From: an uncultured Clostridia bacterium
Lineage (GTDB): Bacteria > Acidobacteriota > Aminicenantia > JBFLYD01 > JBBIMS01
Assembly: GCA_964531645.1 (NCBI GenBank)
Contig: CAZHEF010000001.1
Coordinates: 88,054 to 152,053, forward strand
Direction: 5' to 3'
DNA: 64,000 nucleotides
Shown here: positions 3,456-64,000 of the stretch, piece after piece
Numbering within the stretch: the first letter of the stretch is position 1
Layout of the letters: each line of letters opens with the position of its first letter
Made by a program: the position numbers and the translations under genes
The notes under the pieces: model-generated
The model's input: the letters and a program-made list of their open reading frames with translations, nothing else
The model's database searches: none
What the model was told of the DNA's origin: nothing

Positions 3456-3559
3456 TAATCTATATATTATATTTTTTTCTCTCTCTTGCATTTTCTACTA
3501 CAGTATCAGGTAAGTTTTCTGAGATCGTCTCTCCAGCGGAGATAAGGCTTCATTGCAAA

Positions 3560-3617
3560 ATGCAAATTAAAAATACAAATTTAAAATTTAAAATTTTAAA
3601 TTTAAAATTTTAAATCT
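3560..3617. repeat. AT-only short tandem repeat (approximate unit aatttaaaatt, about 5 copies) in the rmuC upstream region
   Basis: Direct reading of 'aaatttaaaatttaaaattttaaatttaaaattttaaatc'. Confidence 0.6.
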
Positions 3618-3724
3618 ATTCTTTCAATTTGCATTTTAAAATCTCCAATTTTCAATGCTATTTCTCTATCTACTACATTACTACATATGTTGATGCTTTC
3701 CTGAGAAAATTATATAATTTCCTC

Positions 3725-4840: not shown

Positions 4841-4843
4841 TTT

Positions 4844-5512: not shown

Positions 5513-5522
5513 TATCGTTTAG

Positions 5523-6590: not shown

Positions 6591-6635
6591 TTCTTGCGTT
6601 AAAAAGCAGAATTTAAAATACAAAATTGCTAATCT

Positions 6636-11516: not shown

Positions 11517-14108
11517 ATGAGAATGGATAGATTTACTATAAAAGCGCAAGAGGCTCTTGCAGAGTCGCAAAAACTCTGTCAGAATCTCTCTCATCAGGAA
11601 ATCCTTCCTGAGCATGTTCTCCATGTATTCATGGAGGATAATCAATCAATCCCCTCTCTTATTTTGGAAAAAATAGGTATTGACCCATCCATAATCCTTC
11701 AAAAAACAAAAAAATATCTTGAAAGAGTCCCAAGGGTTCAGGGTGGGGATATATACATTTCAAAAAGATTGGCAAATGTTCTTAATAATGCTGAAGGTAT
11801 AGCGGAATCCCTGAAGGATGATTATATTTCAACTGAACATATACTTATTTCCATTTACAGAGAAGATGGCAATGAGAGCAGAATTCTAAAAGAGAGTGGA
11901 GTGACTGAAGAGAACCTTCTTGCAAGTTTAAGAGCTATAAGAGGGACACAGAGGGTAACTGACCAGAGCCCTGATGAAAAGTATCAAGCCCTACAGAGAT
12001 TTGGAAGAGATTTGACAGAACTCGCAAGGAAGGGAAAGCTTGATCCTGTAATTGGAAGGGATGATGAAATTAGAAGAGTTATGCAGGTTCTCTCAAGAAG
12101 GACGAAGAATAATCCTGTTTTAATCGGTGAACCGGGTGTTGGGAAAACAGCTGTCGTAGAAGGTCTGGCTCAGAGGATTGCAAAGGGAGATGTTCCAGAA
12201 ATTCTCAAGAACAAAAAGATAATTGCCCTTGATATAGGAGCCATTGTTGCAGGGACAAAGTATAGGGGGGAATTTGAGGATAGATTGAAAGCAGTAATAA
12301 AAGAGGTGGTTGAATCCAATGGTGAAATAATTCTTTTCATAGATGAACTCCACACAATTGTTGGAGCAGGTGCTGCTGAAGGTGCTGTGGATGCCTCAAA
12401 CATGTTAAAACCTCCCCTCGCAAGGGGTGAGTTAAGGGCAATTGGAGCAACCACTTTAACAGAATATAAAAAACATATTGAGAAAGACCCTGCCCTTGAA
12501 AGAAGGTTCCAGCCTGTTTATGTGAGTGAGCCATCTGTTGAGGATACAATCTCCATCCTTCGCGGTTTGAAAGAGAAGTATGAAGTTCATCATGGCGTTA
12601 AAATAAAAAATTCCGCTCTTGTCACAGCAGCGGTTCTCTCCAATAGATACATTTCTGATAGATTTCTTCCTGACAAAGCAATTGACTTAATTGATGAAGC
12701 AGCTGCAAGATTGAGGATGGAGATAGATTCAGTTCCTGTTGAGATTGATGAGGTAGAAAGAAAAATTCTCCAGCTTGAGATTGAAAGAGAAGCTTTGAAA
12801 AAGGAGAGTGATCCAATTTCTGCCGAGAGACTTTCAAAACTCGAGGAAGAAATAAAAGAGTTCCATTCAAAAAGGGAAGAACTCAAGGCTCACTGGCTTA
12901 AAGAGAAAGAATTGATTCAGAAAATCAGAGAAATTAAGGCAAAGATTGACCAGGCAAAGGTGGATCAGGAAATTTATGAAAGAAAGGGTGAACTGGAAAA
13001 AGTCGCTGAGATAAGGTATGGAAGACTTATAGAATTGCAGAAAGAACTTGAAAAAGTTTCCAATGAGCTATCCAAGATTCAACAGAAAGGGAAGATGTTG
13101 AAGGAAGAGGTGGATGAAGAAGATATAGCTGAAATTGTTTCTAAATGGACAGGTATACCTGTTACAAAACTTATGGAGGGTGAAAGGGAAAAGCTACTCC
13201 AGATGGAAGAAAAACTTTCTGAAAGAGTTATTGGTCAGGAAGAAGCTGTTAGGTCAGTCTCATCGGCAATAAGAAGGGTAAGGTCAGGGCTTCAGGATCC
13301 GAGAAGACCTCTCGGTTCATTTATCTTTCTTGGTCCTACTGGTGTTGGAAAAACAGAGCTTGCAAAGACTCTTACAGAGTTCCTCTTTGATGATGAAAAG
13401 GCAATGGTGAGGATTGATATGTCCGAGTACATGGAGAAACATTCTGTAGCAAAGTTGATTGGTGCACCTCCAGGATATGTTGGATATGAAGAGGGTGGAC
13501 AACTTACTGAAGCAATAAGAAGAAGACCATACTCCGTTATCCTTCTTGACGAGATTGAAAAGGCTCACCCTGAAGTTTTTGATATCCTTCTTCAGATTCT
13601 TGATGATGGAAGGTTAACAGACTCCAAAGGTAGGACAGTGGATTTTAGAAACACAGTTATTATTATGACATCCAACCTTGGTTCTCAACTAATTCAGTCC
13701 CTTATTTCCAATCCTGAACTAATGAAGCAAAAGGTCATGGAAACAGTTCGCTCCTATTTTAAACCCGAATTTTTAAATAGAATAGATGACATAATAATCT
13801 TCAAGCCTCTTTCAAAGGAAGTATTCTCAAAGATTCTTGATTTGAGACTGACAGAGGTTCAGAAAATTTTGCTCTCCAAGGATATAAAGCTTAAGTTCAC
13901 CCCTGAGTTAAAGGAAAAAATTGCAGAGATGGGATACGATCCTCAGTATGGAGCAAGACCTCTCAAAAGGGTTATTCAGAAAACCATTCAGGATCCCCTT
14001 GCAATGGAGATTATATCAGGAAGAATCCGCGAAGGGAATTCAGTAAGGGTTGGATGGAATCCTTTCAGAGAGGAAGCAATGTTTGAGGTAATCAATGGAA
14101 AAGATTGA
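11517..14108 (+). CDS. clpB: ATP-dependent chaperone ClpB. Start reassigned to the ATG at 11517, giving 'MRMDRFTIK'.
   Basis: Two AAA+ modules ('GEPGVGKT', 'GPTGVGKT') and a long middle coiled-coil; about 860 aa; canonical ClpB N-terminus. Confidence 0.9.
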
Positions 14109-15105
14109 GGAAATTCTTATCAATGAGTTGAAAAATTTGATTTCAGAATTTAGGGGCGAACCCACATCCCTCTACCTTATTCCTGAACTTGTCCTCTCAG
14201 TAATTCATAAAGTTAACAATAAAATGACCCCTCTTATTGGTTACACCCAGCTCCTTATGAAGGATTCAGAGGGAGCAGCTCAGGAGAAACTAAAAAAGAT
14301 TTACAACAGCGGCTCAATTGCGTCCTCAATTCTAAGTTCCCTTTTTGAATATCTAAAAACATTCCCATATCCAAAGAGAATGTGCGAACTTGGAGAATTT
14401 GTAAGAGAGATTGTGGAAAGTGATGAAAGGTTGAAAAACATAGATTTCAAACTCCTGGTAAATAAAACAATTACTCTTCCTATAAACAAAGTTCAGATGA
14501 AGGAAGTAATTAAGAAAATAATTGAAAATTCCCTGGAAGCTCTCGACAAGCCTGAAAAAAGGCTGGAAATAAATATTTATAAGGAAGAAAACAACGCAGT
14601 TATCGAATTCTGGGATAATGGAGAAGGAATAAATAGCGAGAATTTAAATAATGTATTTGAACCATTTTTTACTACAAAGGAAGGAAGGTCTGGTCTTGGT
14701 TTATCCTTTGTCCACGGAATTGTGAAGAATCATGGTGGAGATGCACGAGCAGAAAGTGAAAGAGGGAAATGGACAAAAATTACAATTTCCTTACCCATCA
14801 AACCATTTGATTGGAAGGAAGAGAAGATTGTTCTTCTTGCTCCTGAAAATAATTTATATGAAATTCTCTTTAAAATCTTAGAATCTGAATCAATAAAAGT
14901 AGATTGGAAAAAAGAAGAAAAGAATCTTGAAAATTACACTCATTTAATCCTTGATGAGGATTACAAAAATGCGGAAGAAATTCTTGAGCTGGCAGAAAAG
15001 CTGAATAAAAAGATAGTTTTTATTGGTAGCAAAGATAGAAAAGGAGTTATTTTTATAAGAAAACCAGCCACTCTGGTAAATATAATATCAAAATTGTATT
15101 TTTAG
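14095..15105 (+). CDS. Soluble orphan sensor histidine kinase (HisKA + HATPase_c) with an extra C-terminal domain of about 100 aa. It overlaps the clpB stop by 14 nt.
   Basis: H-box '[17 protein letters not shown]', N-box 'IENSLEAL', G1 'DNGEGI', G2 'GLGLS'. No TM segments. Confidence 0.6.
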
Positions 15106-18789: not shown

Positions 18790-19452
18790 TCAATACCAGA
18801 TTGAAACACCAACTAAAAGATGAAGTCCGCTGAGGTCAAATTTTTCAAATCCCTGAAAATCAGAAGAGAGGCTGTCCTTAAGGAAAACATACTTTGCCTC
18901 TCCAAAGAAGCCCACTGACCTGCTCATTCTCCACGAAATCCCACCACGAATGTTTGCACCCATTCCAGATGTGCTTGTCTGATAACTTCCTGAAAATACC
19001 TCCCATGTATCAAAGTCAACAAAGTCTCCTTCCTGAACATATTTCCAGAAATATATTCCAATACCTCCACCAAAATAAGGTGCAATTGGTCTGTGAGCTC
19101 CACCAGGATAAATCTTAAAGGAGCCTTCTATCGGAACAATGCTGAGGGACAGAGACTCATATATAGGAGAACCATCTTCGTATTCCCAATCTCTATAAGA
19201 TGTCGTAATTTCCCTTGAGTAGGAACCAACTTCAAGAGAAAAAGACACATTCCTTTTTACAAAAACTTCCCATTCTAAAGAGACAAAACTTCCCTCAAAA
19301 TCCTTCTTCTCGAGATAAAGATTCTCCCTGTTTATCTTCCAGAGGTCGCTATCCTGAGAAGGGCTGAACTGCCCGAGTTTTAACTTTAGTGAGTCCGAAA
19401 AAATAGGAGTTGAAATTAAAATAATTGATGCTAAAATTAGAAGTTTTTTCAT
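18790..19452 (-). CDS. Small outer-membrane beta-barrel protein with signal peptide. Preferred start is the ATG at 19452; the RBS lies within the upstream codons.
   Basis: Signal peptide 'MKKLLILASIILISTPIFS', alternating amphipathic strands, and an aromatic C-terminus '...SIWY'. Confidence 0.5.
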   Translation of the reverse strand: MKKLLILASIILISTPIFSDSLKLKLGQFSPSQDSDLWKINRENLYLEKKDFEGSFVSLEWEVFVKRNVSFSLEVGSYSREITTSYRDWEYEDGSPIYESLSLSIVPIEGSFKIYPGGAHRPIAPYFGGGIGIYFWKYVQEGDFVDFDTWEVFSGSYQTSTSGMGANIRGGISWRMSRSVGFFGEAKYVFLKDSLSSDFQGFEKFDLSGLHLLVGVSIWY

Positions 19453-19605
19453 GTCGCCTCCTTTCATATAAAATTTCTATCAAATTTGATGCCAGATTGA
19501 AATCCTTATAAATAAATGCTTTACATCCAGCAAGGTGTCATTTTTTAAGGTCAACTGTCCTTTTATAGGGGGAAAAAGGGTAGAGGAATGAGAAAAGTTT
19601 TGAGA

Positions 19606-37292: not shown

Positions 37293-37412
37293 TCCTTTCT
37301 TTCATTAATCTTCTTAAGTGTAAAGTAAAAAATTCCTCCTGTCAAATGAAATATGAAATTCAATTGAATTCATTGAAATAAAAATTTAAAATTATATAGT
37401 GGGAGGTGAAAT

Positions 37413-38434
37413 TTGAAGAGGCTTTTTTCTTCTTTTGTTTTATATTTGATAATTTTGTTCATACCTTTAGAGGGAAAGGATTTTATTCTGAAACTCGAAA
37501 AAGAATTTGAGGTTGACTACGGAGTTACTTCTTTTGACTATCACAATGGAAAATTCTATCTTTCAAATTCTTTGCTGAACCAAATTGTAATTTGCAATGA
37601 AAAAGGTGAGGAAGTTGAGAAGAACAGGGGAAAGAAGGTGTTGGACCGGCTGAGTTCGGAATACAATCTCCGGGAGCACTCATTATTATAGGAGAAAAAA
37701 TTTTTGTGAATGACCCAGTGAATTTCAGAATTCAAATTTTAGACCTTGAAGGAAATTTCTTAAAACAGATGAAATTCTGGAGTGAGATTCCTTTGATAAC
37801 ACTCGTGAAAATTTATCCAATTAACAATAAGATGATAGGGTTATACGGTTATTCCATGGAAACAAAAGAAAATGAGGCTAAAATGAATCACAAATTTATA
37901 ATTTTAAATTTGGAAGATTGACAAAGAAAGCATGCGATCCTTCAACCCTTTTCAGGGATATTTTCCTCCTGTCATCGTAAAAAATATGATTTTTCAGGCA
38001 GACAGGGAAGATTTTATTGTTGGTGTTTATAATATGGAAGGGAAAAAGTTAAAAGATATAAAGAAAAAGGCGAAGAATATCCCTCTATCAGAGGACTTGA
38101 AAAAATATTTCTCGGAAATGGAAGAGTTTGAAATGGCAAAAAAACTTTCTCAAGGAATGGTTGATTTTTCTTTCCCCTCCCATCTTCCAATAATAAGAAG
38201 TATTCTTGCTATTGAAGATAATTTGATTGTTTTAACCTGGAAAGACTGGTATGAGGAAAATTTCAAAGGCAAGTGAAAGAAATTCACGTAGAAATATTCA
38301 ATTTGAATGGAGAATATCTTGGAAAAGGAAAGACAAATTTTCTTCCTGATGAGGTCGTAATGGTAAAAGGGAAAAATGTTTTTATTCTCCATGAAGAAGA
38401 GAAAAGGAAAATATTAGAAGTAATGAGGTTGTAA
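37413..38434 (+). pseudogene. Secreted NHL-repeat (6-bladed beta-propeller) protein gene disrupted by at least 3 frameshifts. Frames run 0 -> 2 -> 0 -> 2.
   Basis: Four collinear ORF fragments with a signal peptide at the first. The alternative frame reads the NHL-type repeat 'GVGPAEFGIQSPGALIIIGEKIFVNDPVNFRIQILDLEGNF' across the first break. Confidence 0.6.
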
Positions 38435-38567
38435 GTTTAAATGGGAAAGAAAGGCAAGGAAAGCAGCCTTGTAAAAGCTACTCAAAGTTTAAGGCTGAAT
38501 GGAAAAGAAGAAAAAATCAAAATTAGCGTGCTGAAAGAAGCGAGCTCTGAGCTTTTAGCTTTTTAAA

Positions 38568-38653
38568 TGCCGGAGGAGGGAGTCGAACCCTCACGCTCCC
38601 GAAGGAGCCCAAGATTTTGAGTCTTGTGCGTCTGCCAATTTCGCCACTCCGGC
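38568..38653 (-). tRNA. tRNA-Leu (anticodon CAA), type II with long variable arm; CCA not encoded
   Basis: Manual fold of the reverse complement: acceptor GCCGGAG/CTCCGGC, anticodon stem CAAGA/TCTTG, loop CTCAAAA, T-loop TTCGACT, variable-arm hairpin GGCTCC-TTCG-GGAGC. Confidence 0.85.
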
Positions 38654-38797
38654 ATCTTTTCAAATTTTATCATTTAGTGGTTATTTCTTCAATAGTTCGA
38701 ATATAAACTTATGTAATGTACTATACGGTCGGGAAATTTAATCCAATTTGCTGATTTTTGACTTTTGTTTCTTATATTTTTATAATAGTTTGGACTT

Positions 38798-39745
38798 ATG
38801 CGAAAATTTTTATTATATCTTCTATTCTTTGTCATTCTGATTGCTTTTTTTACTGATATTTATTTCTTTTTTTTTCTTTTTAATCGGAATCTTGAAGATG
38901 CAAATAGATTGAGGGAAGCATCCTTAGCCCTGAAAAATATTTCAACGAGTTCAACAAAAATATACAGTGGGCTTGATGTTTCCAATAGTATAGTTGAAAT
39001 AAAGGAAAACAAAGATAAATTTGAAAGTTTTCTAATGAGAAGGAATTTAGCAGGGATCAATTTTGAAACTTTTTCTTCCCTCTGGAGGGAGACTAATGGC
39101 AATATTGCTACTCTGGTAAAGAATGAAAGGAGCTCAGGAGATTTCTTCAGAGCATATAGCGATATTAATAGCTCAATTTCCCCGATGGTTGAAAGGCTTG
39201 AAATAATTGAAAAACAATGCAGAAAAAAGGCAAAATTTTATATTTTTGTATTTGGCATAATTAATATTTTAATTATCATAAGTTTGTCTTTGTTTTTGGT
39301 TCTTCTGCAAAGGAAAAGATTCTCTGATTTCGAAAAGAAAAGATTGGCTGTTAAAAACCTTCTTGAAAATCTAAACAAAGAAGTGGAGGAAGTGGCTGAT
39401 GAGATTGAAGAGATTTCTACAAAGACAATTAAACTTTCCCTCAGAAAAAGTGAAAATGGTTATTCCTTAATAACTTCATCCCTTGAAGAGATGAGAAAGA
39501 GGATAGATTCTTTTCTCGATGAGTCATTTGTAACTGAAGGAGAAGATTCCAAAGGTAACCTTCAAAAACTTATAGATTCCCTTTCTTTATCCCTTAATAA
39601 CATCATTGCAAATACAATTGTTGAGATGGAAAAATTCAAAGAGACTGAGAAGAGTATTGAAAAGATAAGTGGAAAACTTTCTTTTTTGAAAAAGAAAGTG
39701 GCTGAAATATCCTTATCTATTAGAAACAAAGAAAAAGAGTTGTAA
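38798..39745 (+). CDS. Hypothetical membrane protein: two TM helices flanking a periplasmic segment of about 120 aa, then a cytoplasmic coiled-coil
   Basis: Hydropathy ('LLYLLFFVILIAFFTDIYFFFFLF' and 'FYIFVFGIINILIIISLSLFLVLL') and a heptad-rich C-terminus. No recognisable catalytic motif. Confidence 0.4.
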   Translation: MRKFLLYLLFFVILIAFFTDIYFFFFLFNRNLEDANRLREASLALKNISTSSTKIYSGLDVSNSIVEIKENKDKFESFLMRRNLAGINFETFSSLWRETNGNIATLVKNERSSGDFFRAYSDINSSISPMVERLEIIEKQCRKKAKFYIFVFGIINILIIISLSLFLVLLQRKRFSDFEKKRLAVKNLLENLNKEVEEVADEIEEISTKTIKLSLRKSENGYSLITSSLEEMRKRIDSFLDESFVTEGEDSKGNLQKLIDSLSLSLNNIIANTIVEMEKFKETEKSIEKISGKLSFLKKKVAEISLSIRNKEKEL

Positions 39746-43392: not shown

Positions 43393-43431
43393 GCGGGTTT
43401 CGAAAGAAATTCTGAAAGTCTAAAAATAGTT

Positions 43432-44745
43432 TCATCTTTCAGGAGCTGTCTCCTCTACAATTTCAATTGCTCTTTCAAAATTGCCTGTTTTAGCTATCTC
43501 ATTCACAACAATAAAAACAGCATTTCCACGCATATCCTCATCAATTATTTTGTTTGCAATCTCTAAGGCTTGATCAAATTTACCGGCTTTAGCCATATCT
43601 TCTATAATGTATCTTAATGTCCAGAATCGCTCTTTATAGTCTGATATACTCTTTGCAAGCTTAAAAGCCATCTCAAATTCACCCACATCAGCCATATCCA
43701 TCCAATGTACCTGAGCTTATCAAATCGTTTTTCTGAGTCCAGTATTCTTTGAGCAGTTTCAATGGCTTTATTAAATAGAAGATGCTTCCTGTCTATTTCC
43801 TCTCATTGCCATGTTTTTAGCAATTGAAGTGAGGGCATTAATAAGAAAACTTTCATCCCTTATCCTGTGACAAATTTCAAGAGCCTTATGAAACTCTCCC
43901 CTCTTTGCAAGCCAGGGGGGAGTTTTAATACCTTCAACAAGTTCAAGAGCCTTATCAAAGTAACCAGTAAAGGGCAGAATAGCTACTATCTTCTTCCATG
44001 CTTAGAACAATCTCAGTTGCTTTTTCAAAGTTTCCTGCCTTTGCAAGTTTTTTTACTATTTCAGCGATCGCCCTATCGCATCTTTTTTTATCAGACATTT
44101 TTGAGGTTAATTCAATGGCTTGTTCAAATCTATCCCTTTCACAAGGGAAAAAGCAATTGAACAAAGGATGGAGTATTGGAAATCTGGATCACTAACCTTT
44201 TGAGAAACCTCAAAAGCCTCTCTAAATTTCCCTTTCTCAACCATAATTTCTGCAATGGTCTCAAAAAGACTTTAACGGGTATCTTCTTTAGGGATTTTCT
44301 TCGCAATTTCAAGATCATGCTTGAAAAAAACCGCTTTCAGCCAATTCCCTCACAATATAATATCGGGCACATTTACATTCTTCAGACTCTCCTTATTTAA
44401 CCATCTTCTCTATAATAGATTTAAATGCCCCATAGTTATACTCCTCATCAGTTATTTTAAGGGAAAGTTCAATGGCTTCATTAAATTTTCCTTTTTCAGC
44501 CATATAAGATGCAATTGTATAGAATGCGGAAGAGCGGGAATAATTCGGCAATGCAGGAGCCGCCATAGATAAAACTTCTTCAGGTTCTTCTTTCTCAACT
44601 TCCCCTGAAACATCTATCGGAATAAGCTCCTTAAGGGATTTATTAGTATGTCGGTAATAATATCCTATGCTAATTAAGACTATTCCTACTGTGAAAAGAA
44701 CAATAAAAAATATTAACCTTATTTTCTTCTTGTGTAGAAACTTAA
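43432..44745 (-). pseudogene. Membrane-anchored repeat protein with about 10 tandem 34-38-aa repeats (consensus A-K-x-G-K/N-F-E/D-x-A-I/L-E-I/L), broken by multiple frameshifts and stops
   Basis: Minus-strand translation gives 'LAKAGNFEKATEIV', 'IAKTGNFERAIEIVEE', 'MAKAGKFDQALEIANKI', 'MAEKGKFNEAIELSLKI', 'VEKGKFREA' in at least three different frames. An N-terminal TM segment is encoded near 44650-44720. Confidence 0.55.
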
Positions 44746-44905
44746 CCCTTTCATTCCTTCAATCTCCCTTTTCAAATATATGTAAGATTTTTTATGATGT
44801 AAAATCAACTTTTCTTTTTAACTAATATATAAACTACGGTTAGAAAAATAAAAATGGGTGAAAACCAAATAGCTTACAGCTGTTAGTTCATAGCTGTCAG
44901 CTAAT

Positions 44906-44940
44906 ATTGACAATTTTGTAGTATTGGATTATTTTATTAA
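44906..44940 (+). promoter_or_regulatory. Candidate sigma70-type promoter for tRNA-Val (TTGACA, then about 17 nt, then TATTTT)
   Basis: 'ttgacaattttgtagtattggattatttt' read directly upstream of the tRNA. Confidence 0.3.
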
Positions 44941-44946
44941 TTGTTT

Positions 44947-45021
44947 GGGCGGTTAGCTCAGCGGTAGAGCACTGGTCTTACACGCCGGGGGTCAGAGGTT
45001 CAAATCCTCTACCGCCCACCA
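44947..45021 (+). tRNA. tRNA-Val (anticodon TAC) with encoded 3' CCA
   Basis: Manual fold: acceptor GGGCGGT/ACCGCCC, D-arm GCTC-AGCGGTA-GAGC, anticodon loop CTTACAC, T-arm AGAGG-TTCAAAT-CCTCT, terminal ACCA. Confidence 0.85.
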
Positions 45022-45342
45022 TGATATTTATTTAAAGGGTGCTCTTTTATAATAGGTTGGTTCCTCTAAAAATCCGATCATAATATCCACTTTTATTTCG
45101 TCTTCCCATAGGGGAAAGGATTGATGTGAGAGGGAGTAAAAATAAGGAAAAGGTTTGCTCCTTTGAACCAAAATAGCTTTAGCTAGGAGCTGTTCGCTGT
45201 TAACCATTCTGGGGAGAGTATTTTGGAAAAACTAACCTGATATATTTTTATTCCTTGAAGAAAATTTATGGTGTAATGTAGCTTGTGTTCTTGATTACTT
45301 TATAATTTATTAAATAATATATAAATTTGGAAGGAGGAATAA

Positions 45343-45540
45343 ATGTCTAAAGCACAAGCAAAATTAACACCCGTTGAAATTATAAGAGCGATTGAGAATC
45401 TTACTCCTGATGAGTTGGAGACTTTATTTATAATGCTTGATAGAGAGCTTGCTGGCGAGCTTCTGCTCAGGAGAGAGGAGGCAAAAGAAGAATTTAGAAA
45501 GGATGAGCTTCGGACAAAAGAAGAGATTTTTAAAGATTGA
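45343..45540 (+). CDS. Type II antitoxin, putative addiction-module component (TIGR02574-like)
   Basis: 65-aa acidic protein 'LTPVEIIRAIENLTPDELETLFIMLDREL' with a strong AAGGAGG RBS. It sits immediately upstream of, and overlaps, a ParE/RelE-like reading frame. Confidence 0.5.
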   Translation: MSKAQAKLTPVEIIRAIENLTPDELETLFIMLDRELAGELLLRREEAKEEFRKDELRTKEEIFKD

Positions 45541-45831
45541 TTGAGTTAAAATTCTCAATAGCTACAGAGAAAGATATAAAAAAAATTAGATAAAAAGATT
45601 TAAACAGTTCTTCTAAATGAGCATATACCTAAAATTGAGAAAAATTCATATTGTGGATTTGCATTAAAATATGGATTTGAGGGGCTTTATTCCTATCACT
45701 TTAGTTATGGTGGAAATCAGTATCGAATCGTTTATGAAATTTACAAAGAATATAAAATCGCGGTGGTCATCATGGTTGGTCCGAGAGAGCGATTTTATGA
45801 ACGCCTTCGTCAAAGGATAAGTAATAAATAA
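45537..45831 (+). pseudogene. RelE/ParE family toxin, disrupted. The N-terminal 18 codons are in one frame and the C-terminal 76 codons in another, with stops in all three frames in between.
   Basis: Frame 0 'LIELKFSIATEKDIKKIR*'. Frame +1 '...LNEHIPKIEKNSYCGFALKYGFEGLYSYHFSYGGNQYRIVYEIYKEYKIAVVIMVGPRERFYERLRQRISNK*'. An A8 homopolymer lies at the junction (45578-45585). Confidence 0.55.
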
Positions 45832-45903
45832 TTTTAAAGCATGACCTTACTCCTTTGATTTGTTTAATGAATTTGATAAAATTTACATGAAAGGCAAGAA
45901 AAG

Positions 45904-56732: not shown

Positions 56733-59700
56733 ATGATTTATACCTTGACCTGCACAGGAAAAAGAATTTTCAAGTTAATTAAGCAGACAATCATTTTCCT
56801 TTTATGTTTGATTCCTCTTCTTCAAGCTCAGCATAATGTTCGATTTCAGCACCTCTCAATTGAACATGGGCTTTCCCAGTATTCAGTGCATTGCATTATT
56901 CAGGACAAAAAAGGGTTTATGTGGTTTGGGACAGAAACAGGCTTGAACAGATATGATGGCTATGAATTTACTATCTACAATCCTGAACTTGGAAACCCTA
57001 ACAGCCTCAGCAACAATTGGATAAACGCATTATATGAAGATCGTTTTGGTTATTTATGGATTGGCACCGACAATGGTCTGAATAAGTTTGATAGAGAGAC
57101 TGAAAGATTCACAAGATATTTTCACAGAGAGGATGACCCATATAGCCTGAGTAACAACAGAATTTTTTCCATCTACGAAGATAAATCTGGAAATTTATGG
57201 ATTGGAACGGAAGACGGTTTAAATAGATTTGACTGGCAAACCGGGAGATTCTACCATTACAAAAATAATCCTGAAGATCCCCAAAGCCTGAGTCACAATG
57301 CTGTCAGGGCTATATGCGAAGATGAAAAAGGAAATCTCTGGATTGGAACATTTGGTGGAGGACTAAATAGATACGACCCGACTACAAACCAATTCACTCA
57401 TTACAAGAGTAATTCCAAAAATCCTGATAGCTTGAGCGATGATCAAATCCTATCCATCGCAATAGACTCCTCCGGAAACCTATGGATGGGAACTAGAGGC
57501 GGTGGGTTGAACAAATTTGACCCTTTAACAGGCAAATTTAAAAATTATAAAAGCAATCCCAAAGACCCTAACAGTCTCAGCGATAACTGGATCAATTGTC
57601 TTTATGTTGATGAAAATGGGATCCTCTGGATAGGCACAAACAGTGGTGGTCTTAATATGTTTAACCCGAAAACCGAGAGATTTGTGGTTTATAAAAATGA
57701 CCCCGCAGATCGGTTCTCCTTAAGCGGCAATAGAATTTTAACAGTCTATAAAGACCGATCTGAAATATTATGGGTTGGATCATATGAAGGCGGGTTAAGT
57801 AAATACGCTATGAAAAAAGACTATTTCTTGCTATTTGAACCTAACCCAAATGACCCTCTCAGCCTGAGCTATTCTGCAGTCCGTTCATTCTATGAGACAG
57901 AAGATGGTATTCTGTGGGTAGGAACAGATGGTGGCGGGATAACAGTTTTTAATAGAAAGGAAGGGAAGACCATTTATTATAAATACAACCCAAATGATCC
58001 TTTCAGCTTGAGCAGTGATAGAGTCTTCTCTATAATAAGAGATGAAACAGGAACTTTCTGGATTGGAACTTATGGTGGAGGACTCAACCGGTTTGAACCT
58101 AAAACCGGAAGATTTGTTCATTATCGACATAATCCAGGAAATCCTTTCAGTATCAGCGATGACAGAATCAGAACCATCTACCTTAGTAACTCAGGAGTTT
58201 TATGGATAGGAACGGATGGAGGAGGACTCAATAAATTTGATAGAAAAACCAATAAATTCATCCGATATATTCATAATCCATATAAAAAGAACAGTCTAAG
58301 TAGTAATCGAGTATGGGCAATAAGAGAAGACAATTCCGGAATATTATGGATAGGAACTTTCGGAGGTGGTCTTAACAAATTCGATCCAGAAAAGGAAGAA
58401 TTTTCCCATTTTAAGCATGATCCTGAAAATCCAAATAGTTTAAGTAATAACTATATTATGACACTTCATATGGATTCAAATGGTTATCTCTGGATTGGGA
58501 CAAGCGCTGGCGGTCTAAACAAATTCGACCCTAAAAATGAACTTTTCACCACTTACACTCGTAAAAAAGGCCTTCCAGATGATGTAATATATGGTATTCT
58601 TGAAGACAAAGAAGGAAATCTCTGGATAAGTTCAAATAAGGGAATAATAAAATTCAATCCTCACAGAAAAGAGATAAAAAGCTATGATATGAACGATGGA
58701 CTTCAATCCAATGAGTTCAATGGCGGATCATATTTTAAGAGTAAGACTGGCTGGATGTATTTTGGAGGGCCTAAAGGTTTCAATGCATTTTTACCTGAAA
58801 ATGTCAAAGAAAGCTCCTACATTCCATCCATAGTGATAACAGATTTCAAGATCTTCGGCAAATCTGTGCCAACAGGAAGAACTTCTGCCGGAAGAGTAAT
58901 TCTTGAAAAATCAATCACCGAAACTGATTACATAAAACTATCACATAAAGACCGTGTAATCTCTTTTTCTTTTACTGCCCTTGACTATACTGCTCCTGAA
59001 AACAATCAATATGCTTATATGATGAAAGGAATTGATAATGACTGGAACTATGTTGGAAAAAGTCGCTATGCCAACTACAATAACATTCCACCAGGCAAAT
59101 ATGTTTTCAGGGTAAAGGGAACAAACAGCGATGGGGTCTGGAATGAAGAGGGCATATTATTGAAGATAGAGATCGCTCCACCTTTCTGGAAAACATGGTG
59201 GTTTTATCTGACATCTGGTTTATTTGTTTTATTTACTTTATTTGGAATATATCTATTAAGAATTAGCCAGCTCCATAGAGCCAAGGAAAAATTAGAAGCA
59301 TTGGTTAATGAAAAAACCAAACAATTAGCAGAAGCCAATAAAAAATTGGAATTACTCTCAACTACTGATGAATTAACGGGCATACCTAACTACCGAAAAT
59401 TCAAGGAATTTTTCCAGCGTGAATGGCTAAGAGCTATTCGAAATAAAACCCCAATAGCTGTGATTTTAATTGACATAGATAATTTCAAGCTCTACAACGA
59501 TACTTATGGACATCAAGCTGGAGATATTTGTTTGAGAAGAATTGCTGAGGCGATATATGAAAATGTCAAACGACCGGGTGACATGGCCGCGCGTTATGGC
59601 GGAGAAGAATTTATCATTGTCCTATCGGAAACGGATTCCTTTGGAGCTTTCACCGTGGCAGAAAGAATAAGAAAACAAGTTGAATCACTGAAAATTTCCC

Positions 59701-59876
59701 ATGAAAAGTCGGCTGTCTCTGATGTCGTTACCATTAGCCTTGGCTATGCCACGGCAATTCCGAATGGAGAGATTGTGGCAGATTGGATGATTAACCTTGC
59801 TGATCAGGCATTATATGAAGCCAAAAAAAATGGTAAGAATCAAACTTGCGAAGCGATTAGTTCTATTTTAAAGTGA
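56733..59876 (+). CDS. Sensor diguanylate cyclase. Has a signal peptide, a periplasmic two-component-regulator-propeller (Reg_prop) double beta-propeller plus Y_Y_Y domain, one TM, a coiled coil, and a cytoplasmic GGDEF domain.
   Basis: At least 14 repeats of 'GxLWIGTxxGGLNxFD', TM 'WWFYLTSGLFVLFTLFGIYLL', and a GGDEF active site 'RYGGEEF' with upstream 'DIDNFKLYNDTYGHQAGD'. Confidence 0.8.
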   Translation: MIYTLTCTGKRIFKLIKQTIIFLLCLIPLLQAQHNVRFQHLSIEHGLSQYSVHCIIQDKKGFMWFGTETGLNRYDGYEFTIYNPELGNPNSLSNNWINALYEDRFGYLWIGTDNGLNKFDRETERFTRYFHREDDPYSLSNNRIFSIYEDKSGNLWIGTEDGLNRFDWQTGRFYHYKNNPEDPQSLSHNAVRAICEDEKGNLWIGTFGGGLNRYDPTTNQFTHYKSNSKNPDSLSDDQILSIAIDSSGNLWMGTRGGGLNKFDPLTGKFKNYKSNPKDPNSLSDNWINCLYVDENGILWIGTNSGGLNMFNPKTERFVVYKNDPADRFSLSGNRILTVYKDRSEILWVGSYEGGLSKYAMKKDYFLLFEPNPNDPLSLSYSAVRSFYETEDGILWVGTDGGGITVFNRKEGKTIYYKYNPNDPFSLSSDRVFSIIRDETGTFWIGTYGGGLNRFEPKTGRFVHYRHNPGNPFSISDDRIRTIYLSNSGVLWIGTDGGGLNKFDRKTNKFIRYIHNPYKKNSLSSNRVWAIREDNSGILWIGTFGGGLNKFDPEKEEFSHFKHDPENPNSLSNNYIMTLHMDSNGYLWIGTSAGGLNKFDPKNELFTTYTRKKGLPDDVIYGILEDKEGNLWISSNKGIIKFNPHRKEIKSYDMNDGLQSNEFNGGSYFKSKTGWMYFGGPKGFNAFLPENVKESSYIPSIVITDFKIFGKSVPTGRTSAGRVILEKSITETDYIKLSHKDRVISFSFTALDYTAPENNQYAYMMKGIDNDWNYVGKSRYANYNNIPPGKYVFRVKGTNSDGVWNEEGILLKIEIAPPFWKTWWFYLTSGLFVLFTLFGIYLLRISQLHRAKEKLEALVNEKTKQLAEANKKLELLSTTDELTGIPNYRKFKEFFQREWLRAIRNKTPIAVILIDIDNFKLYNDTYGHQAGDICLRRIAEAIYENVKRPGDMAARYGGEEFIIVLSETDSFGAFTVAERIRKQVESLKISHEKSAVSDVVTISLGYATAIPNGEIVADWMINLADQALYEAKKNGKNQTCEAISSILK

Positions 59877-59923
59877 TGATGAAACAATATTCCTGGATTG
59901 AAATTAATATAGAGTGAGGATAT

Positions 59924-60619
59924 ATGAATAAGAATCAAAAAGTTTTGAATTTAGTGTTGATAGTTAGGGACGATTCTGACAGAGCCTTTTATGGATCTCT
60001 TCTGGCTACTTATCAAGACATCTCCCTTGAATCATACACCTCTCTTCAGCAATTCTGGGAAAGTCTTGAAGACAGACTCTATTCAGGAGTCTTAATCGAC
60101 CTTCATACTCTTATCATCTCGTCAACCTCAGAAAAAGAATTTTATTATTCAATCCGCAAAGGCTTTCCTGTGATCAGGCTAAACAGAAGTGCTGACAAAA
60201 AAGAGCTGGATTTTTTTATTGAAGAGCAAAAGGCAAGAGCCCTAAAAGGTAAAGAACTTCTGGATTATTTCATATATAATCTGTGCGCCAGCAGAAGTGC
60301 CAGGAAAATCAGAAGACATGCAAGAAAGAATTTATATTTCAATGTTAATTTGCATTTTACTGATGGACATTCTATAAAAACGAACCTTTTGGACCTCTCC
60401 CAAGGGGGTTGTTTTGTTCTGACCAACGAAGAGCCTCCCGCAGATAAAATTGTCTATCTTATTATCAATGAATTGACAGACAAAACACCCATCCCTGCTG
60501 AAGTAAAATGGAATGTCCCGTGGGGGAAGACCATAAAACATCTGCCTGGGCTTGGGCTGGCATTTAAAAAAATGTTAACCAGTCAGATAGAAGAAATTAA
60601 GAAAGCACTCGAGTCTTAA
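59924..60619 (+). CDS. PilZ-domain c-di-GMP receptor with an N-terminal receiver-like domain
   Basis: C-terminal 'RRHARK' (RxxxR) followed by 'DLSQGG' (DxSxxG), the two PilZ c-di-GMP-binding motifs. The N-terminal half has a REC-like alternation ('VLIVRDDSD', 'GVLIDL'). Confidence 0.6.
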   Translation: MNKNQKVLNLVLIVRDDSDRAFYGSLLATYQDISLESYTSLQQFWESLEDRLYSGVLIDLHTLIISSTSEKEFYYSIRKGFPVIRLNRSADKKELDFFIEEQKARALKGKELLDYFIYNLCASRSARKIRRHARKNLYFNVNLHFTDGHSIKTNLLDLSQGGCFVLTNEEPPADKIVYLIINELTDKTPIPAEVKWNVPWGKTIKHLPGLGLAFKKMLTSQIEEIKKALES

Positions 60620-60775
60620 ACATAATCATATAGTCTTTAATTAGTGTAGGATTTATAATTGAAAGTGAAAGAGGGGTTGAGAGTTAAAGAAAGGTTTTTA
60701 TAAAAAGATATTTTGATTTCTGGTATTGATTTTGAATGAATTCTTCTTTGATTATTTAATAGTTCAGAAATTCAA

Positions 60776-60825
60776 TTGACAATAAATTTTGAAATAAATT
60801 AAAATTATATGTAGTTATATGTAGT
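60776..60825 (+). promoter_or_regulatory. Candidate promoter (TTGACA, 17 nt, TTAAAA) followed by a perfect tandem 10-mer (tatatgtagt x2) just upstream of the decaheme cytochrome RBS
   Basis: 'ttgacaataaattttgaaataaattaaaattatatgtagttatatgtagtaatgaaggagg' read directly. Confidence 0.35.
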
Positions 60826-60842
60826 AATGAAGGAGGTTATGG

Positions 60843-61733
60843 ATGAGTTTGCAGAAAGTTTCTTTATGTATTGCCTCTGCCTCCGCCATTCTCCTCTGGT
60901 TCTTATTCTCAAACCCTCTAAAAGTATCAGCTCAGGGAGAATATGCAGGTATTGAACAATGCGCCATGTGTCATGAAGATATTGTAAAGTCCTTTAAAGC
61001 CTCAATCCACGGCAAAAAAGGTTTTGAACTCCGCTCTGATAAAGCCTGTGAAACCTGCCACGGTCCCAGCGCTGCCCATGTCGAAGCAGGAGGAGATAAG
61101 ACAAAAATCCAGATTATAAAAGCTCTTTCTGCTGAAGAGAAATCAGATATGTGTCTCCAGTGTCATGAAAGAGGAACACAGATGTTTTGGAATGGAGGTG
61201 CTCATGAGTTAAGGGGTTTAAGCTGTCTAACCTGTCATTCTGTCCATCATCCAAAGGATGAAAAAGCCCAGTTAATTTCAAAAGAATCCGAACTTTGCTT
61301 TGATTGCCACAAGAAAAACAGATCTCAATTTTTGAGAGCATCCCATCATCCCATCAGAGAAGGAAAAATGAACTGTTCTGATTGTCATAATCCCCATGGA
61401 ACCCAGACAGAAAAACTGATCTCTGCCAATTCGATTACCGAAAAGTGTTATGAATGCCACACTGAAAAAAGAGGTCCTTTTCTCTGGGAACATGTTCCAG
61501 TTAGAGAAGATTGTTCAAACTGCCACGAACCTCATGGAACAAACCATATCAAAATGCTCAATGCAAAAATGCCATTCCTCTGCCAGAGATGTCATTCAGA
61601 CCAAAGACATCCTGGAACCATTTACGACCAGACCCAGATTGTCTCCAACAGGTTATTTAACAGATCTTGTACCAACTGTCACTCCACAATCCATGGATCC
61701 AATCATCCATCAGGAAAAACATTCTTGAGATAA
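60843..61733 (+). CDS. Periplasmic decaheme c-type cytochrome, MtrA/DmsE/MtoA/PioA family
   Basis: Signal peptide plus exactly ten CxxCH motifs (CAMCH, CETCH, CLQCH, CLTCH, CFDCH, CSDCH, CYECH, CSNCH, CQRCH, CTNCH) in 296 aa, the size and heme count of MtrA/MtoA. AAGGAGG RBS. Confidence 0.8.
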   Translation: MSLQKVSLCIASASAILLWFLFSNPLKVSAQGEYAGIEQCAMCHEDIVKSFKASIHGKKGFELRSDKACETCHGPSAAHVEAGGDKTKIQIIKALSAEEKSDMCLQCHERGTQMFWNGGAHELRGLSCLTCHSVHHPKDEKAQLISKESELCFDCHKKNRSQFLRASHHPIREGKMNCSDCHNPHGTQTEKLISANSITEKCYECHTEKRGPFLWEHVPVREDCSNCHEPHGTNHIKMLNAKMPFLCQRCHSDQRHPGTIYDQTQIVSNRLFNRSCTNCHSTIHGSNHPSGKTFLR

Positions 61734-61745
61734 GGAGGTGTGAAA

Positions 61746-63926
61746 ATGAAAAAAGCTTTTTTAATTTTGTTAACATTTGTATTTTTCATTGGATTCTCCG
61801 GTGCAGGTCTTTTTGCTGAAGAGAAAGAAGAAACAAAGGTGAATGGCAAAATAGTCACAGGTGCTCAAGATATTCAGGTTGATGCGAAATCTTCAAAATT
61901 CTTTGAATACAGAGATGTTCCAAGGGGGTTCACATTTGGAGTCTTTAATGTCAATATTGAAAATGGGAATAGATATTTTAACTTCAACTTTACCAATTTG
62001 AAGCAGAGGGATGGAAGATACAACCTCAATTTTGGAGAGTATGGGAAGTTAGATTTAAATTTCCTATGGGACAAAACTCCTCACAGATTCAGCTTTGACG
62101 GGAAGACTCTCTATGTAGGTAGAGAGGAAGGCGGGGTCTACTATTACACCCTTTCTGACCAGATTCAACTCGATGCCCAGAATGCTCCCACCATTACAGA
62201 TACAAGAAAACTTATCTCCAGTTTTCTAACAGGAGCTCAGGAAAAAGGTCTTGAGCTTATAAGAAATAAAGGAGTTCTTGACATTAAATTTACTCCTTCA
62301 GTTCCATTAACATTAAGAATTAATGCCCAAAGAGAGACAAGAAATGGAACAAGACCTTTCGGAGCATCATTTGGATTCAATCATGTTGTTGAAGTTCCAG
62401 AGCCAATTGATTATAAGACATCCAATGTTAATTTCAATGCAGAGTATTCGAAAAAATGGGGAACAGTAGTTGCTGGATTTAATTATTCAAATTTTGATAA
62501 TAACCTTCAGACACTTATATGGGATAACCCCTTCAGATTAACTGACAACCCTAAAGGCTCTTATATTAACGGCGATTCGAGTGCCTTCGGAAGAATGGCT
62601 CTTTCCCCAGACAACTCTGCAAATCAATTCTATTTTAAAGGCTCTATCAAACCTTTGAAGAACGCAAGGATAAACGTCTCGATCTCCTTTGGAACTTTCA
62701 CTCAGGATGAGAAACTCCTTCCTTATACAATTAATACAGTTCTTACCTCCTACGATTCAGGCGCTTTAAACCCTCCGAGGGATACTGCAAAAGCAGAAGC
62801 TGATATTGCTTCAATCGATTTAAGCCTTAACACTAAAATAATTGAAAATCTTTGTTTTAATGCTGGCTACAGTTCTTACGATTTCAAAAATAAAACTGAA
62901 GAATTGCATCTCCCGGGATATACAAGATTTGATCAGTCATGGGTCTCAGCAGTATCCGTTGAACCCTATAGCTTCAAGAGAGAAAAATACTATGGAGAGC
63001 TTACTTATAATTTCCTGAAAAAAGCCTTTCTTAAACTTGGCCTTACTTCCTCAAGCATTGAAAGAGAGCTTGGGCATGAGGATGAAGGAAAGAGTGATGA
63101 GACAGCCTATCACGCCTCTATTGACTCCAATCTTACAGACTGGCTACTTTTTAGAATTTCTTATCTGAGCTCTTCGAGAGAATGGTCTCTTGATGATGTA
63201 AAGAAAATTTATCCAACCTTCAATTTTAAGAGATACCATGAAGCTACAAGGGACAGAGAGGGACTGAATCTTCTTGTTTCATTTTCTCCTATTGCAAATC
63301 TTGACCTTTCTGCTTCCTACATGCAAGGTAAAGATGATTATACAAAATCTGAATACGGTTTGAGGAATCAAGATTTCACAAATTATTCCTTTGACCTTTC
63401 TTATATCTTGAAAAAAGGGAGTTCATTGTATGTATTTTACTCCAATGAAGTATATAAAGGAGTCCAGAGGTCAAGGCAGTCTGGTGCAACCTATTCAATA
63501 GATGTTCGAGATGACTGGTCTGCTGAGCTGAAGGATACAATTGATTCTTACGGAGCTGGAATCAACGCAGTTCTCAAAAAGAATAAACTCAATTTTGATC
63601 TTTCCTACATTTACTCAAAAGCTGACGGAACATCCTTTCTTGACTCCCCTCCCGGAAGAACTGCTGGCCCTGACCTTGCAGTTAATTTCAAAAAGAAGAT
63701 AGATACAACAACCCTTCAGAGCATAAGAGCAAAATTGCTATGGAAGTTGCAACCTCGCGTGACCATGGCAATAGGTTACTGGTATGAGCAATATGGCCTT
63801 GAGGATATTACTCGTAATGACTTAAAAGTGGATATGCTTCTGACTGGAATGGCAATGTATCTTGGCGCCCTTGAACCCGGGTACAAGTATCATACTGGTT
63901 TTGTAAAATTAATATATTCTTTCTGA
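61746..63926 (+). CDS. MtrB/PioB/MtoB family decaheme-associated outer-membrane beta-barrel porin. ATG at 61746; the track GTG is at 61740.
   Basis: About 727 aa, signal peptide 'MKKAFLILLTFVFFIGFSGAGLFA', beta-rich composition, C-terminal '...KLIYSF' with terminal Phe. Immediately downstream of, and co-oriented with, the decaheme cytochrome. No N-terminal CxxC, so MtoB/PioB-like. Confidence 0.6.
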   Translation: MKKAFLILLTFVFFIGFSGAGLFAEEKEETKVNGKIVTGAQDIQVDAKSSKFFEYRDVPRGFTFGVFNVNIENGNRYFNFNFTNLKQRDGRYNLNFGEYGKLDLNFLWDKTPHRFSFDGKTLYVGREEGGVYYYTLSDQIQLDAQNAPTITDTRKLISSFLTGAQEKGLELIRNKGVLDIKFTPSVPLTLRINAQRETRNGTRPFGASFGFNHVVEVPEPIDYKTSNVNFNAEYSKKWGTVVAGFNYSNFDNNLQTLIWDNPFRLTDNPKGSYINGDSSAFGRMALSPDNSANQFYFKGSIKPLKNARINVSISFGTFTQDEKLLPYTINTVLTSYDSGALNPPRDTAKAEADIASIDLSLNTKIIENLCFNAGYSSYDFKNKTEELHLPGYTRFDQSWVSAVSVEPYSFKREKYYGELTYNFLKKAFLKLGLTSSSIERELGHEDEGKSDETAYHASIDSNLTDWLLFRISYLSSSREWSLDDVKKIYPTFNFKRYHEATRDREGLNLLVSFSPIANLDLSASYMQGKDDYTKSEYGLRNQDFTNYSFDLSYILKKGSSLYVFYSNEVYKGVQRSRQSGATYSIDVRDDWSAELKDTIDSYGAGINAVLKKNKLNFDLSYIYSKADGTSFLDSPPGRTAGPDLAVNFKKKIDTTTLQSIRAKLLWKLQPRVTMAIGYWYEQYGLEDITRNDLKVDMLLTGMAMYLGALEPGYKYHTGFVKLIYSF

Positions 63927-64000
63927 GATTTTCGGGATAAGATTTTGGGCAAGGGGTAAACTTCCTGCCCCTTTTATTTTGCAATTTAGTCCCTAACTCT

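Follow-up and report, generated by a model that had tools for sequence, protein, structure and literature searches.

An MtrAB-family decaheme cytochrome-porin gene pair in a low-G+C sublineage of the class Aminicenantia

A decaheme cytochrome threaded through an outer-membrane beta-barrel is the standard bacterial device for passing electrons across the outer membrane. We analyzed a 64-kb stretch of DNA (64,000 nucleotides of contig CAZHEF010000001.1, assembly GCA_964531645.1; here called the window) that holds a co-oriented two-gene unit on its + strand, with the gene for such a cytochrome first and a porin gene after it. The pair is a genuine, well-conserved member of the broad MtrAB/MtoAB/PioAB family. 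An earlier note, made from the sequence alone, had proposed this identity, and it is now supported by hidden Markov models (HMMs), by sequence matches to the solved structure 6R2Q, and by fold matches. We take the pair to be a self-contained two-gene operon of a low-G+C member of Aminicenantia, and we think it somewhat probable that the encoded conduit carries electrons mainly outward. Family identity, fold, heme complement, and operon structure were obtained directly here; the direction of flow and the substrate were inferred from the ecology of the lineage and from the gene neighborhoods of its relatives. The two genes and the signals around them are listed below.

60843..61733, + strand: mtrA/mtoA-like gene for a periplasmic decaheme c-type cytochrome (296 aa; ten CxxCH motifs; TIGR03508)
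61746..63926, + strand: mtrB/mtoB/pioB-like gene for an outer-membrane beta-barrel (726 aa; PF11854; AlphaFold2 [AF2] fold)
60721..60735, + strand: sigma-54-like -24/-12 element of variant form (TGGTAT-N5-TTGA), 108 nt upstream of the cytochrome ATG; putative function
60776..60805, + strand: sigma-70-like promoter (TTGACA-18-TAAAAT; 11/12 consensus positions), ending 38 nt upstream of the cytochrome ATG
63947..63980, + strand: intrinsic-terminator-like hairpin and T-run closing the operon (stem 63951-63973, tail TTATTTTGCA; terminator scan)

The cytochrome carries its CxxCH motifs at residues 40, 69, 104, 128, 152, 178, 202, 224, 247, and 276, and every other open reading frame (ORF) of the 64-kb window has one such motif at most. 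The predicted Sec signal peptide is about 30 aa long and ends in VSA before QG. Against the TIGR03508 profile for DmsE/MtrA-family decaheme cytochromes, a check that the earlier note had called for, the protein scored 277.1 bits (cut-off, 192.2) and thus passed by 85 bits. The sole strong match in a PDB sequence search was 6r2q_A, MtrA of the Shewanella baltica MtrCAB complex (E value of 9e-66 over residues 7 to 294), with all heme motifs aligned. Chains A and B of 6r2q are MtrA and MtrB; the local PDB sequence file misnames them "Cystathionine beta-synthase" and "Uncharacterized protein," and the Foldseek library carries the title "Structure of the Mtr complex." Relatives of the cytochrome numbered at least 7926 at E values of ≤1e-10. 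In an alignment of 119 homologues, ten CxxCH motifs were present in 118, and 13 His residues outside the motifs were at least 97% conserved. Together with the ten motifs, these are enough for bis-His ligation of ten hemes. The AlphaFold model of the protein had a mean predicted local distance difference test (pLDDT) score of 64, with the C-terminal half below 50, as expected for a model without hemes, and we used it for the top Foldseek match only. That match was MtrA (E value of 5e-11; 39% identity), the only significant one.

The porin starts with a signal-like helix (residues 2 to 22 in the AF2 model) and ends in LIYSF. It scored 299.6 bits against the MtrB_PioB model PF11854 (cut-off, 23) and fell 2.5 bits under the curated cut-off of TIGR03509, so that, of the two proposed HMM checks, that with TIGR03508 was passed and that with TIGR03509 narrowly missed. 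Its PDB sequence match was 6r2q_B, MtrB, at an E value of 3.8e-17. The AF2 model was confident (pLDDT, 89.4; predicted template modeling score [pTM], 0.83) and had 26 to 28 long strands by DSSP, the number that had been expected. Foldseek placed 6r2q_B at the top (E value of 6.7e-36; template modeling [TM] scores of 0.79/0.88), and the next fold matches were 22-strand TonB-dependent transporters with TM scores of ≤0.42. The porin thus matches an MtrB/PioB model and folds as a barrel, which disposes of the concern that it might be a soluble or unrelated protein. Because the MtrA and MtrB of 6R2Q are by a wide margin the sole strong solved matches, in both sequence and fold, we assign the pair to the MtrAB family. 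The family is large: in a representative library of 1.84 billion proteins, MtrB/PioB had 2028 members at E values of ≤1e-3 and 384 at ≤1e-30. Homologues of the window porin fell into about 68 clusters (clustered at 90% identity) that were 43 to 88% identical to it, with a further tier at 24 to 32%.

The only Cys of the porin is residue 370, and, as described earlier, the protein has no N-terminal CxxC. The absence of this motif had been taken as a sign of the iron-oxidizing MtoB/PioB type, a reading that the homologues do not support. A CxxC is absent throughout all 75 aligned porin homologues, among them proteins of Thermoanaerobaculia, Fischerbacteria, and other Acidobacteriota. The motif is therefore uninformative on electron direction outside the Shewanella-type MtrB, the proteins in which it was studied (PMC12175506).

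The locus looks like a complete bicistronic operon, judging by its strong Shine-Dalgarno sequences, the short gap between the genes, the promoter-like elements, and a conserved terminator hairpin. An ORF and motif scan confirmed the main features read from the sequence at the outset, namely, a 296-aa cytochrome with exactly ten CxxCH motifs, a 12-nt gap, and a barrel with a signal peptide and a terminal Phe. The cytochrome stop codon (TAA, 61731-61733) and the porin ATG (61746) bound the gap, and the porin Shine-Dalgarno sequence AAGGAGGT at 61732-61739 overlaps that stop codon; the cytochrome has the same sequence, AAGGAGGT, at 60830-60837. The ORF tool had placed the porin start at GTG 61740, which is unlikely, as this codon would be placed inside the Shine-Dalgarno sequence. 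With the ATG at 61746 as the start, the porin is 726 aa long, one residue off the approximate 727 aa given before. The sigma-70-like site is a consensus match only, and the regional count of such sites was not above the shuffled expectation. A hairpin homologous to the G+C-rich one of the window, of the form GGGCAGGGG-loop-CCCCTGCCC-Tn, follows mtrB in three related loci (L001, L003, and L009). The mtrA gene lies directly upstream of mtrB in 13/13 distinct related loci, whose porins are 43 to 88% identical to that of the window. Since both proteins match two paired family models and the pair recurs in all of these loci, the pairing of cytochrome and porin is far beyond chance.

The GyrB protein and the closest loci place the host in a low-G+C (~35 to 38%) sublineage of the class Aminicenantia, the former candidate phylum OP8. 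NCBI taxonomy ranks the group as the phylum Aminicenantota, and papers on Lake Towuti treat Aminicenantia as a class of Acidobacteriota (PMC11631310 and PMC12740246). The window GyrB is 84% identical to that of a "Candidatus Aminicenantia bacterium" and 60 to 65% identical to many Aminicenantes, Aminicenantales, and Saccharicenans entries. In species-representative genomes, the closest loci have 82 to 84% porin identity and include a metagenome-assembled genome (MAG) of a "Candidatus Aminicenantes bacterium" (L001). Two further MAGs (L002 and L003) are titled "uncultured Clostridia bacterium" but share the gene order and the 82 to 84% porin identity with L001 and the window; their Clostridia labels are probably wrong. 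Outside the locus, the window consists of ordinary chromosomal genes (ClpB, PPDK, GyrA/B, pyrD/F, tricorn protease, MutS, and two tRNAs). The G+C content of the window is 31 to 41% per 2 kb, mostly 35 to 39%. The tricorn protease, PPDK, DUF362, and low G+C content reported previously were all found again. The earlier note had gone on to suggest an apparently deep-branching, undescribed lineage able to perform extracellular electron transfer (EET). This was not borne out, as GyrB points to Aminicenantia, the relatives already have names, and earlier work lists the class as a putative iron reducer. "Undescribed EET lineage" overstates the case, and the lineage is better called underdescribed.

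Identity tiers ran parallel for GyrB (91, 90, 84, 67, and ~62%) and the porin (88, 87, 84, 59, and ~47%). This parallel argues for vertical inheritance of mtrAB within Aminicenantia, and we rejected recent horizontal acquisition into the window genome on the same ground. In a distant Aminicenantales locus (L015), the stretch immediately upstream of mtrAB (3317-7226) contains three phage-type integrases together with fragments of IS91/Y2 transposases, a hint that the module may occasionally be mobile.

The window ends 74 nt after the porin stop codon, as noted earlier, and partner genes had been expected just beyond this point. Such partners are unlikely, given the conserved terminator after the porin and the next gene in relatives, which is a convergent MoaA gene or ResB/CcsA. 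Convergent MoaA is the next gene after mtrB in five close relatives, and we found neither CymA/MtoD nor MtrC directly downstream of mtrB in the relatives examined. A 16.7-kb Logan contig encoding the exact proteins ends 93 nt after the porin; its extra 19 nt are unlike the MoaA C terminus of the relatives. ResB and CcsA (system II) serve to mature cytochrome c rather than to carry electrons. In L014 (77% porin identity), they directly follow mtrB on the same strand (12329-15078). Downstream of the convergent MoaA, some relatives have a prepilin-like small-protein cluster (L003, 13527-16229 and 16263-17624; L001, 13350-13364; L009, 13541-17455), with a TGGCAT-N5-TTGA motif before it and a second sigma-54 response regulator after it.

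In more distant relatives, the neighborhood changes. In five loci of the same porin clade (43 to 54% porin identity), mtrAB adjoins a conserved cytochrome island. Three of these loci (L008, L012, and L013) have a G+C content of 62 to 66%, and the other two have one of 49%. The islands lie at the following positions.

L006/L007, 308-7301: cytochrome island adjoining mtrAB
L008, 12202-22214: cytochrome island adjoining mtrAB
L012, 12220-22232: cytochrome island adjoining mtrAB
L013, 12284-22244: cytochrome island adjoining mtrAB

All five islands encode ResB/CcsA, a 17-heme cytochrome with a NapC/NirT domain, a Rieske protein, a cytochrome b, and a 9-heme cytochrome. The 17-CxxCH NapC/NirT-domain protein is membrane anchored and 660 to 685 aa long. 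For L008, L012, and L013, the count includes a 4-heme c554-like cytochrome; in L006/L007, a c554-like gene is cut off at the edge. The islands of L008, L012, and L013 add a 6- to 9-heme cytochrome, an 11-heme cytochrome, and a b-type subunit of the Ni_hydr_CYTB family; the 11-heme protein adjoins the b-type subunit and matches PF22113 at the domain level only. From its gene content, the island is plausibly an inner-membrane-to-periplasm feed for the conduit, and it differs in kind from the CymA/MtoD partners that had been anticipated. In the low-G+C clade (the window, L001 to L003, L009 to L011, and L014), the pair stands alone.

By analogy with the solved MtrCAB structure, the cytochrome would be exported by Sec, loaded with ten bis-His c-type hemes, and inserted into the lumen of the ~26-strand MtrB-like barrel. 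The heme chain would then act as an insulated wire across the outer membrane, with its last heme at the cell surface and its first facing the periplasm. The pair has no gene for an MtrC-type surface cytochrome next to it, so that the MtrA-like protein would react with external partners directly, through its exposed end. Electrons would run mainly outward, and the conduit would serve as a respiratory or fermentative sink; the likely acceptors are Fe(III)/Mn(IV) complexes or minerals, quinones of humic matter, or a partner cell. Outward flow is favored by three lines of evidence: the lineage is described as an anaerobic, heterotrophic, putative Fe(III) reducer; no MtoD, CymA, or PioC accompanies the pair in the window or in any related locus examined; and the neighbors in the relatives are large multiheme quinol-oxidase-like modules, as in metal reducers. 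MAGs of Aminicenantia have been singled out as putative Fe(III) reducers and as organisms that ferment buried organic matter (PMC11631310 and PMC12740246), and an MtrAB pair without MtrC has been proposed to serve iron reduction in Magnetospirillum AMB-1 (PMC7005843).

Several observations weigh against outward flow through such a conduit. The sequence offers nothing that fixes the direction of the electrons; MtrAB, MtoAB, and PioAB are homologous, MtoA and PioA form no function-specific clades (PMC8805035), and FeGenie deliberately labels MtrC-less pairs ambiguous (PMC7005843). The 64-kb window contains no other multiheme cytochrome, no quinol dehydrogenase, and no terminal oxidase. The porin scored 237.5 bits against TIGR03509, whose cut-off is 240.05, and the C-terminal half of the cytochrome was modeled poorly (pLDDT of <50). 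An Aminicenantes genome has also been reported with the iron oxidation marker cyc2. This last report, together with an MtoAB/PioAB-like gene content (no MtrC beside the pair in 13/13 related loci) and a porin without CxxC, would suit an inward conduit of the MtoAB/PioAB type, in which extracellular Fe(II), reduced minerals, or a partner cell would donate electrons to the periplasm for lithotrophic energy conservation. The Rieske/cytochrome b genes beside mtrAB in five relatives could then serve uphill electron flow. We regard inward flow as rather unlikely. The lack of CxxC in 75/75 homologues deprives that feature of diagnostic value, and no homologue of MtoD, CymA/MtoC, or PioC (a high-potential iron-sulfur protein [HiPIP]) lies beside the pair in the window or in the relatives. 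Moreover, the 296-aa cytochrome does not have the long N-terminal extension of PioA, the window has no oxidase or carbon fixation genes, and the literature portrays Aminicenantia as anaerobic fermenters or putative Fe(III) reducers (PMC11631310 and PMC12740246).

The wire could also feed a noncytochrome surface reductase, such as an extracellular molybdoenzyme of the dimethyl sulfoxide (DMSO) reductase kind, instead of minerals, as in DmsEF. The best NCBIfam name of the cytochrome ("DmsE family decaheme c-type cytochrome") and the MoaA gene (molybdenum cofactor biosynthesis) convergent with mtrB in five close relatives fit this use. However, the TIGR03508 subfamily model takes in MtrA, MtoA, and DmsE alike, and none of the loci examined has DmsA/DmsB-type genes within 10 kb. 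MoaA is a general housekeeping gene, on the opposite strand and past the terminator, and the tail of the window is not MoaA. A DmsEF-type role is thus very improbable. The idea that there is no outer-membrane wire, and that a soluble NrfB/c3-like periplasmic carrier happens to sit beside an unrelated porin or transporter, is effectively refuted. It can draw on weak secondary matches of the cytochrome to NrfB, NrfH, and c3 models and on the low-confidence C-terminal half of its AlphaFold model. Yet the NrfB and NrfH scores (50 bits versus a cut-off of 184 and 48 versus 134) are far below threshold and that for c3 is also under its own, whereas TIGR03508 was exceeded by 85 bits. An E value of 2e-13 against an NrfB model, well under the model cut-off, compares with 9e-66 for MtrA, so that the cytochrome is not closer to the NrfB type, the outcome that would have told against the initial proposal. 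We rejected an NrfB-type identity because MtrA was the only significant fold match (NrfB E value of 0.2). The barrel, in addition, superimposes on MtrB with a TM score of 0.88, against ≤0.42 for 22-strand transporters, and its adjacency to the cytochrome gene is invariant across the 13 distinct related loci, at 43 to 88% porin identity. A conduit that carries electrons mainly outward remains the reading that we prefer.

Upstream of the pair, the window differs from its relatives. Two genes occupy the space between MutS and mtrA in the window.

56733..59876, + strand: secreted or periplasmic sensor with a Reg_prop beta-propeller, Y_Y_Y, a transmembrane helix, and a GGDEF diguanylate cyclase domain; candidate regulator
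59924..60619, + strand: 231-aa protein with a C-terminal PilZ domain (PF07238; E value of 2.4e-10; residues 130 to 229); candidate cyclic di-GMP (c-di-GMP) receptor

The first protein matches Pfam Reg_prop (11 repeats), Y_Y_Y, and GGDEF; its GGEEF motif at residue 956 and the RPGD sequence before it (an RxxD I-site) are both intact. A repeat period of 141 to 144 nt inside this gene (56995-58627) corresponds to the Reg_prop propeller blades and is not a separate repeat element. For the N-terminal half of the PilZ protein, a PDB search returned nothing below an E value of 0.6. In L001, L002, L003, L009/L010, and L014, MutS is followed by genes for a histidine kinase and a sigma-54 response regulator and then by mtrA and mtrB. 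The regulatory cassette in the slot between MutS and mtrA has therefore been swapped (56733-60619 in the window versus ~6040-8950 in L001, L002, L003, L009, L010, and L014), with the diguanylate cyclase in the position of the relatives' kinase and the PilZ protein in that of the sigma-54 regulator. A repeat search found no terminal repeats or mobile-element boundary flanking the diguanylate cyclase/PilZ cassette.

The kinases of the relatives have a conserved CYGCH sequence, a CxxCH motif, in the periplasmic domain (residue 148/149; 5/5 sequences examined). They are encoded at the following positions.

L001, 6039-7520: histidine kinase with CYGCH
L002, 6055-7533: histidine kinase with CYGCH
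L003, 6061-7542: histidine kinase with CYGCH
L009, 6043-7509: histidine kinase with CYGCH
L014, 6079-7557: histidine kinase with CYGCH

This motif suggests that the relatives' kinase is a heme-c redox sensor controlling the conduit. The sequence TGGCAT-N5-TTGA is conserved 57 to 115 nt upstream of mtrA in L001, L002, L003, L009, L010, L014, and L016 (Fischerbacteria); the -24 element of the window has a C-to-T change relative to these (TGGTAT for TGGCAT). The window contains three copies of TGGYAT-N5-TTGA, compared with 0.48 expected. A CxxCH-bearing histidine kinase and a sigma-54 activator upstream, with a sigma-54-like promoter before mtrA, point to redox-responsive control of the operon in the close relatives. 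On the minus strand of the window, a sigma-54-like sequence (TGGCATCAAATTTGA, 19480-19494) was also found 13 nt upstream of a 225-aa ORF (18790-19467) that has no Pfam match. A link between c-di-GMP and the mtrAB operon of the window is at most suggestive. PAS-GGDEF genes lie about 3 kb upstream of mtrAB in the high-G+C loci L008, L012, and L013, and in Shewanella, raised c-di-GMP is reported to increase Mtr expression (PMC7533324).

Taken as a whole, these arrangements may belong to an EET chain specific to Aminicenantia, a proposal that we make tentatively and with clearly less confidence than that of outward flow. The chain would have an MtrC-less MtrAB on the outside and, on the inside, a Rieske/cytochrome b module with the 17-heme NapC/NirT protein and 9-/4-heme cytochromes in the five higher-G+C relatives, three of which also have 6- to 9-/11-heme cytochromes as well as a second b-type quinol module. 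In the low-G+C sublineage, mtrAB would have been uncoupled from the island and would stand under the heme-c kinase/sigma-54 system in the relatives or beside the c-di-GMP module in the window. If this is true, the abundant "fermentative" Aminicenantia of anoxic sediments are genuine electroactive respirers.

Aminicenantia are among the most abundant uncultured bacteria of anoxic and ferruginous sediments and of the subsurface, and models usually treat them as fermenters. Throughout the class, a conserved MtrAB conduit seems to have been passed on vertically, and this conduit, tied in some members to a large quinol-oxidizing cytochrome island, gives a concrete molecular basis for survey-level claims of iron reduction or of electron exchange with minerals or partners. 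Such claims come from FeGenie surveys of Lake Towuti, in which Aminicenantia are putative iron reducers (PMC11631310 and PMC12740246). In the paper on FeGenie, Aminicenantes come up solely in connection with cyc2 or sulfocyanin. A large MtrCAB survey required MtrC and would therefore have missed MtrC-less pairs like that of the window (PMC8805035). In the literature searched, we found no gene-level description of an MtrAB pair in Aminicenantes/Aminicenantia; the cyc2 mention and FeGenie category calls were all that it held. In databases, relatives are named "DmsE family decaheme c-type cytochrome" and "MtrB/PioB family decaheme-associated outer membrane protein" by the NCBI and JGI pipelines, and proteins with these names occur in MAGs of Aminicenantia, Aminicenantales, Acidobacteriota, Thermoanaerobaculia, and Fischerbacteria. 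Standard pipelines thus already name the proteins correctly, and knowledge of how such conduits work is unchanged. The two genes are testable by heterologous complementation, and the leads beyond the pair are the cytochrome island of the relatives and the swapped regulatory cassettes.

Some features of the window lie apart from the operon. A 315-aa ORF at 38798-39745 (+ strand) has no Pfam match. Two regions of 1.5 to 2.5 kb (37293-38797 and 43393-45903) are without any ORF of ≥120 aa, and each contains one tRNA gene.

38567-38654, - strand: tRNA-Leu(CAA)
44947-45021, + strand: tRNA-Val(TAC)

Compared with known systems, the pair shares the family and fails on the defining accessory features of MtrCAB, MtoAB-MtoD-CymA, PioABC, DmsEFAB, and Geobacter Pcc alike. 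With Shewanella MtrCAB (6R2Q, S. baltica), it has in common an end-to-end alignment to MtrA, the MtrB fold, and the order of cytochrome and then porin. It differs in having no adjoining MtrC/OmcA-type surface decaheme lipoprotein, and none of the 13 distinct related loci has an MtrC-type surface cytochrome beside the pair either. The porin has no N-terminal CxxC and is 19% identical to Shewanella MtrB, the mature cytochrome is about 33 residues shorter than Shewanella MtrA, no CymA is encoded near the pair, and the host is an anaerobic member of Aminicenantia, not a gammaproteobacterium.

We compared the pair with MtoAB (Sideroxydans/Gallionella) and PioAB (Rhodopseudomonas palustris TIE-1) by family membership, gene content, and published description rather than by direct identity or a tree. 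On these terms, they are alike in having two components, no outer cytochrome, a porin without CxxC, and the same Pfam/TIGRFAM families. Unlike MtoAB-MtoD-CymA of Sideroxydans, neither the window pair nor those of its relatives have a monoheme MtoD or a NapC/NirT-type CymA/MtoC beside them. PioABC of Rhodopseudomonas differs in its third gene, the HiPIP PioC, and in PioA, which has a long nonheme N-terminal extension and a total length of ~540 aa (PMC10654088), whereas the window cytochrome has no such extension and its first heme motif is at residue 40. The anoxic, heterotrophic ecology of the window host also sets it apart from the hosts of MtoAB and PioAB. As for DmsEFAB, neither the window nor any related locus examined has DmsA/DmsB or another molybdopterin oxidoreductase within 10 kb of the pair.

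The Geobacter Pcc systems (OmaB-OmbB-OmcB; GSU2203/GSU2204) embody the same functional idea, but the window has no outer lipoprotein cytochrome. Membership in the Geobacter Pcc/GSU2203-GSU2204 group was ruled out by the scores for NF041028 (263.5 bits versus 325) and NF041027 (35.7 versus 350). In having MtrAB without MtrC, the pair resembles those flagged by FeGenie as "probable iron reduction," such as that of Magnetospirillum magneticum AMB-1 (PMC7005843). A report of 2020 described an MtrB-type porin-cytochrome complex from Acidobacteria (Holophaga; PMC7399161), and the module was therefore already known in the wider Acidobacteria. The Holophaga and AMB-1 reports do not cover Aminicenantia, the class from which the window pair comes.

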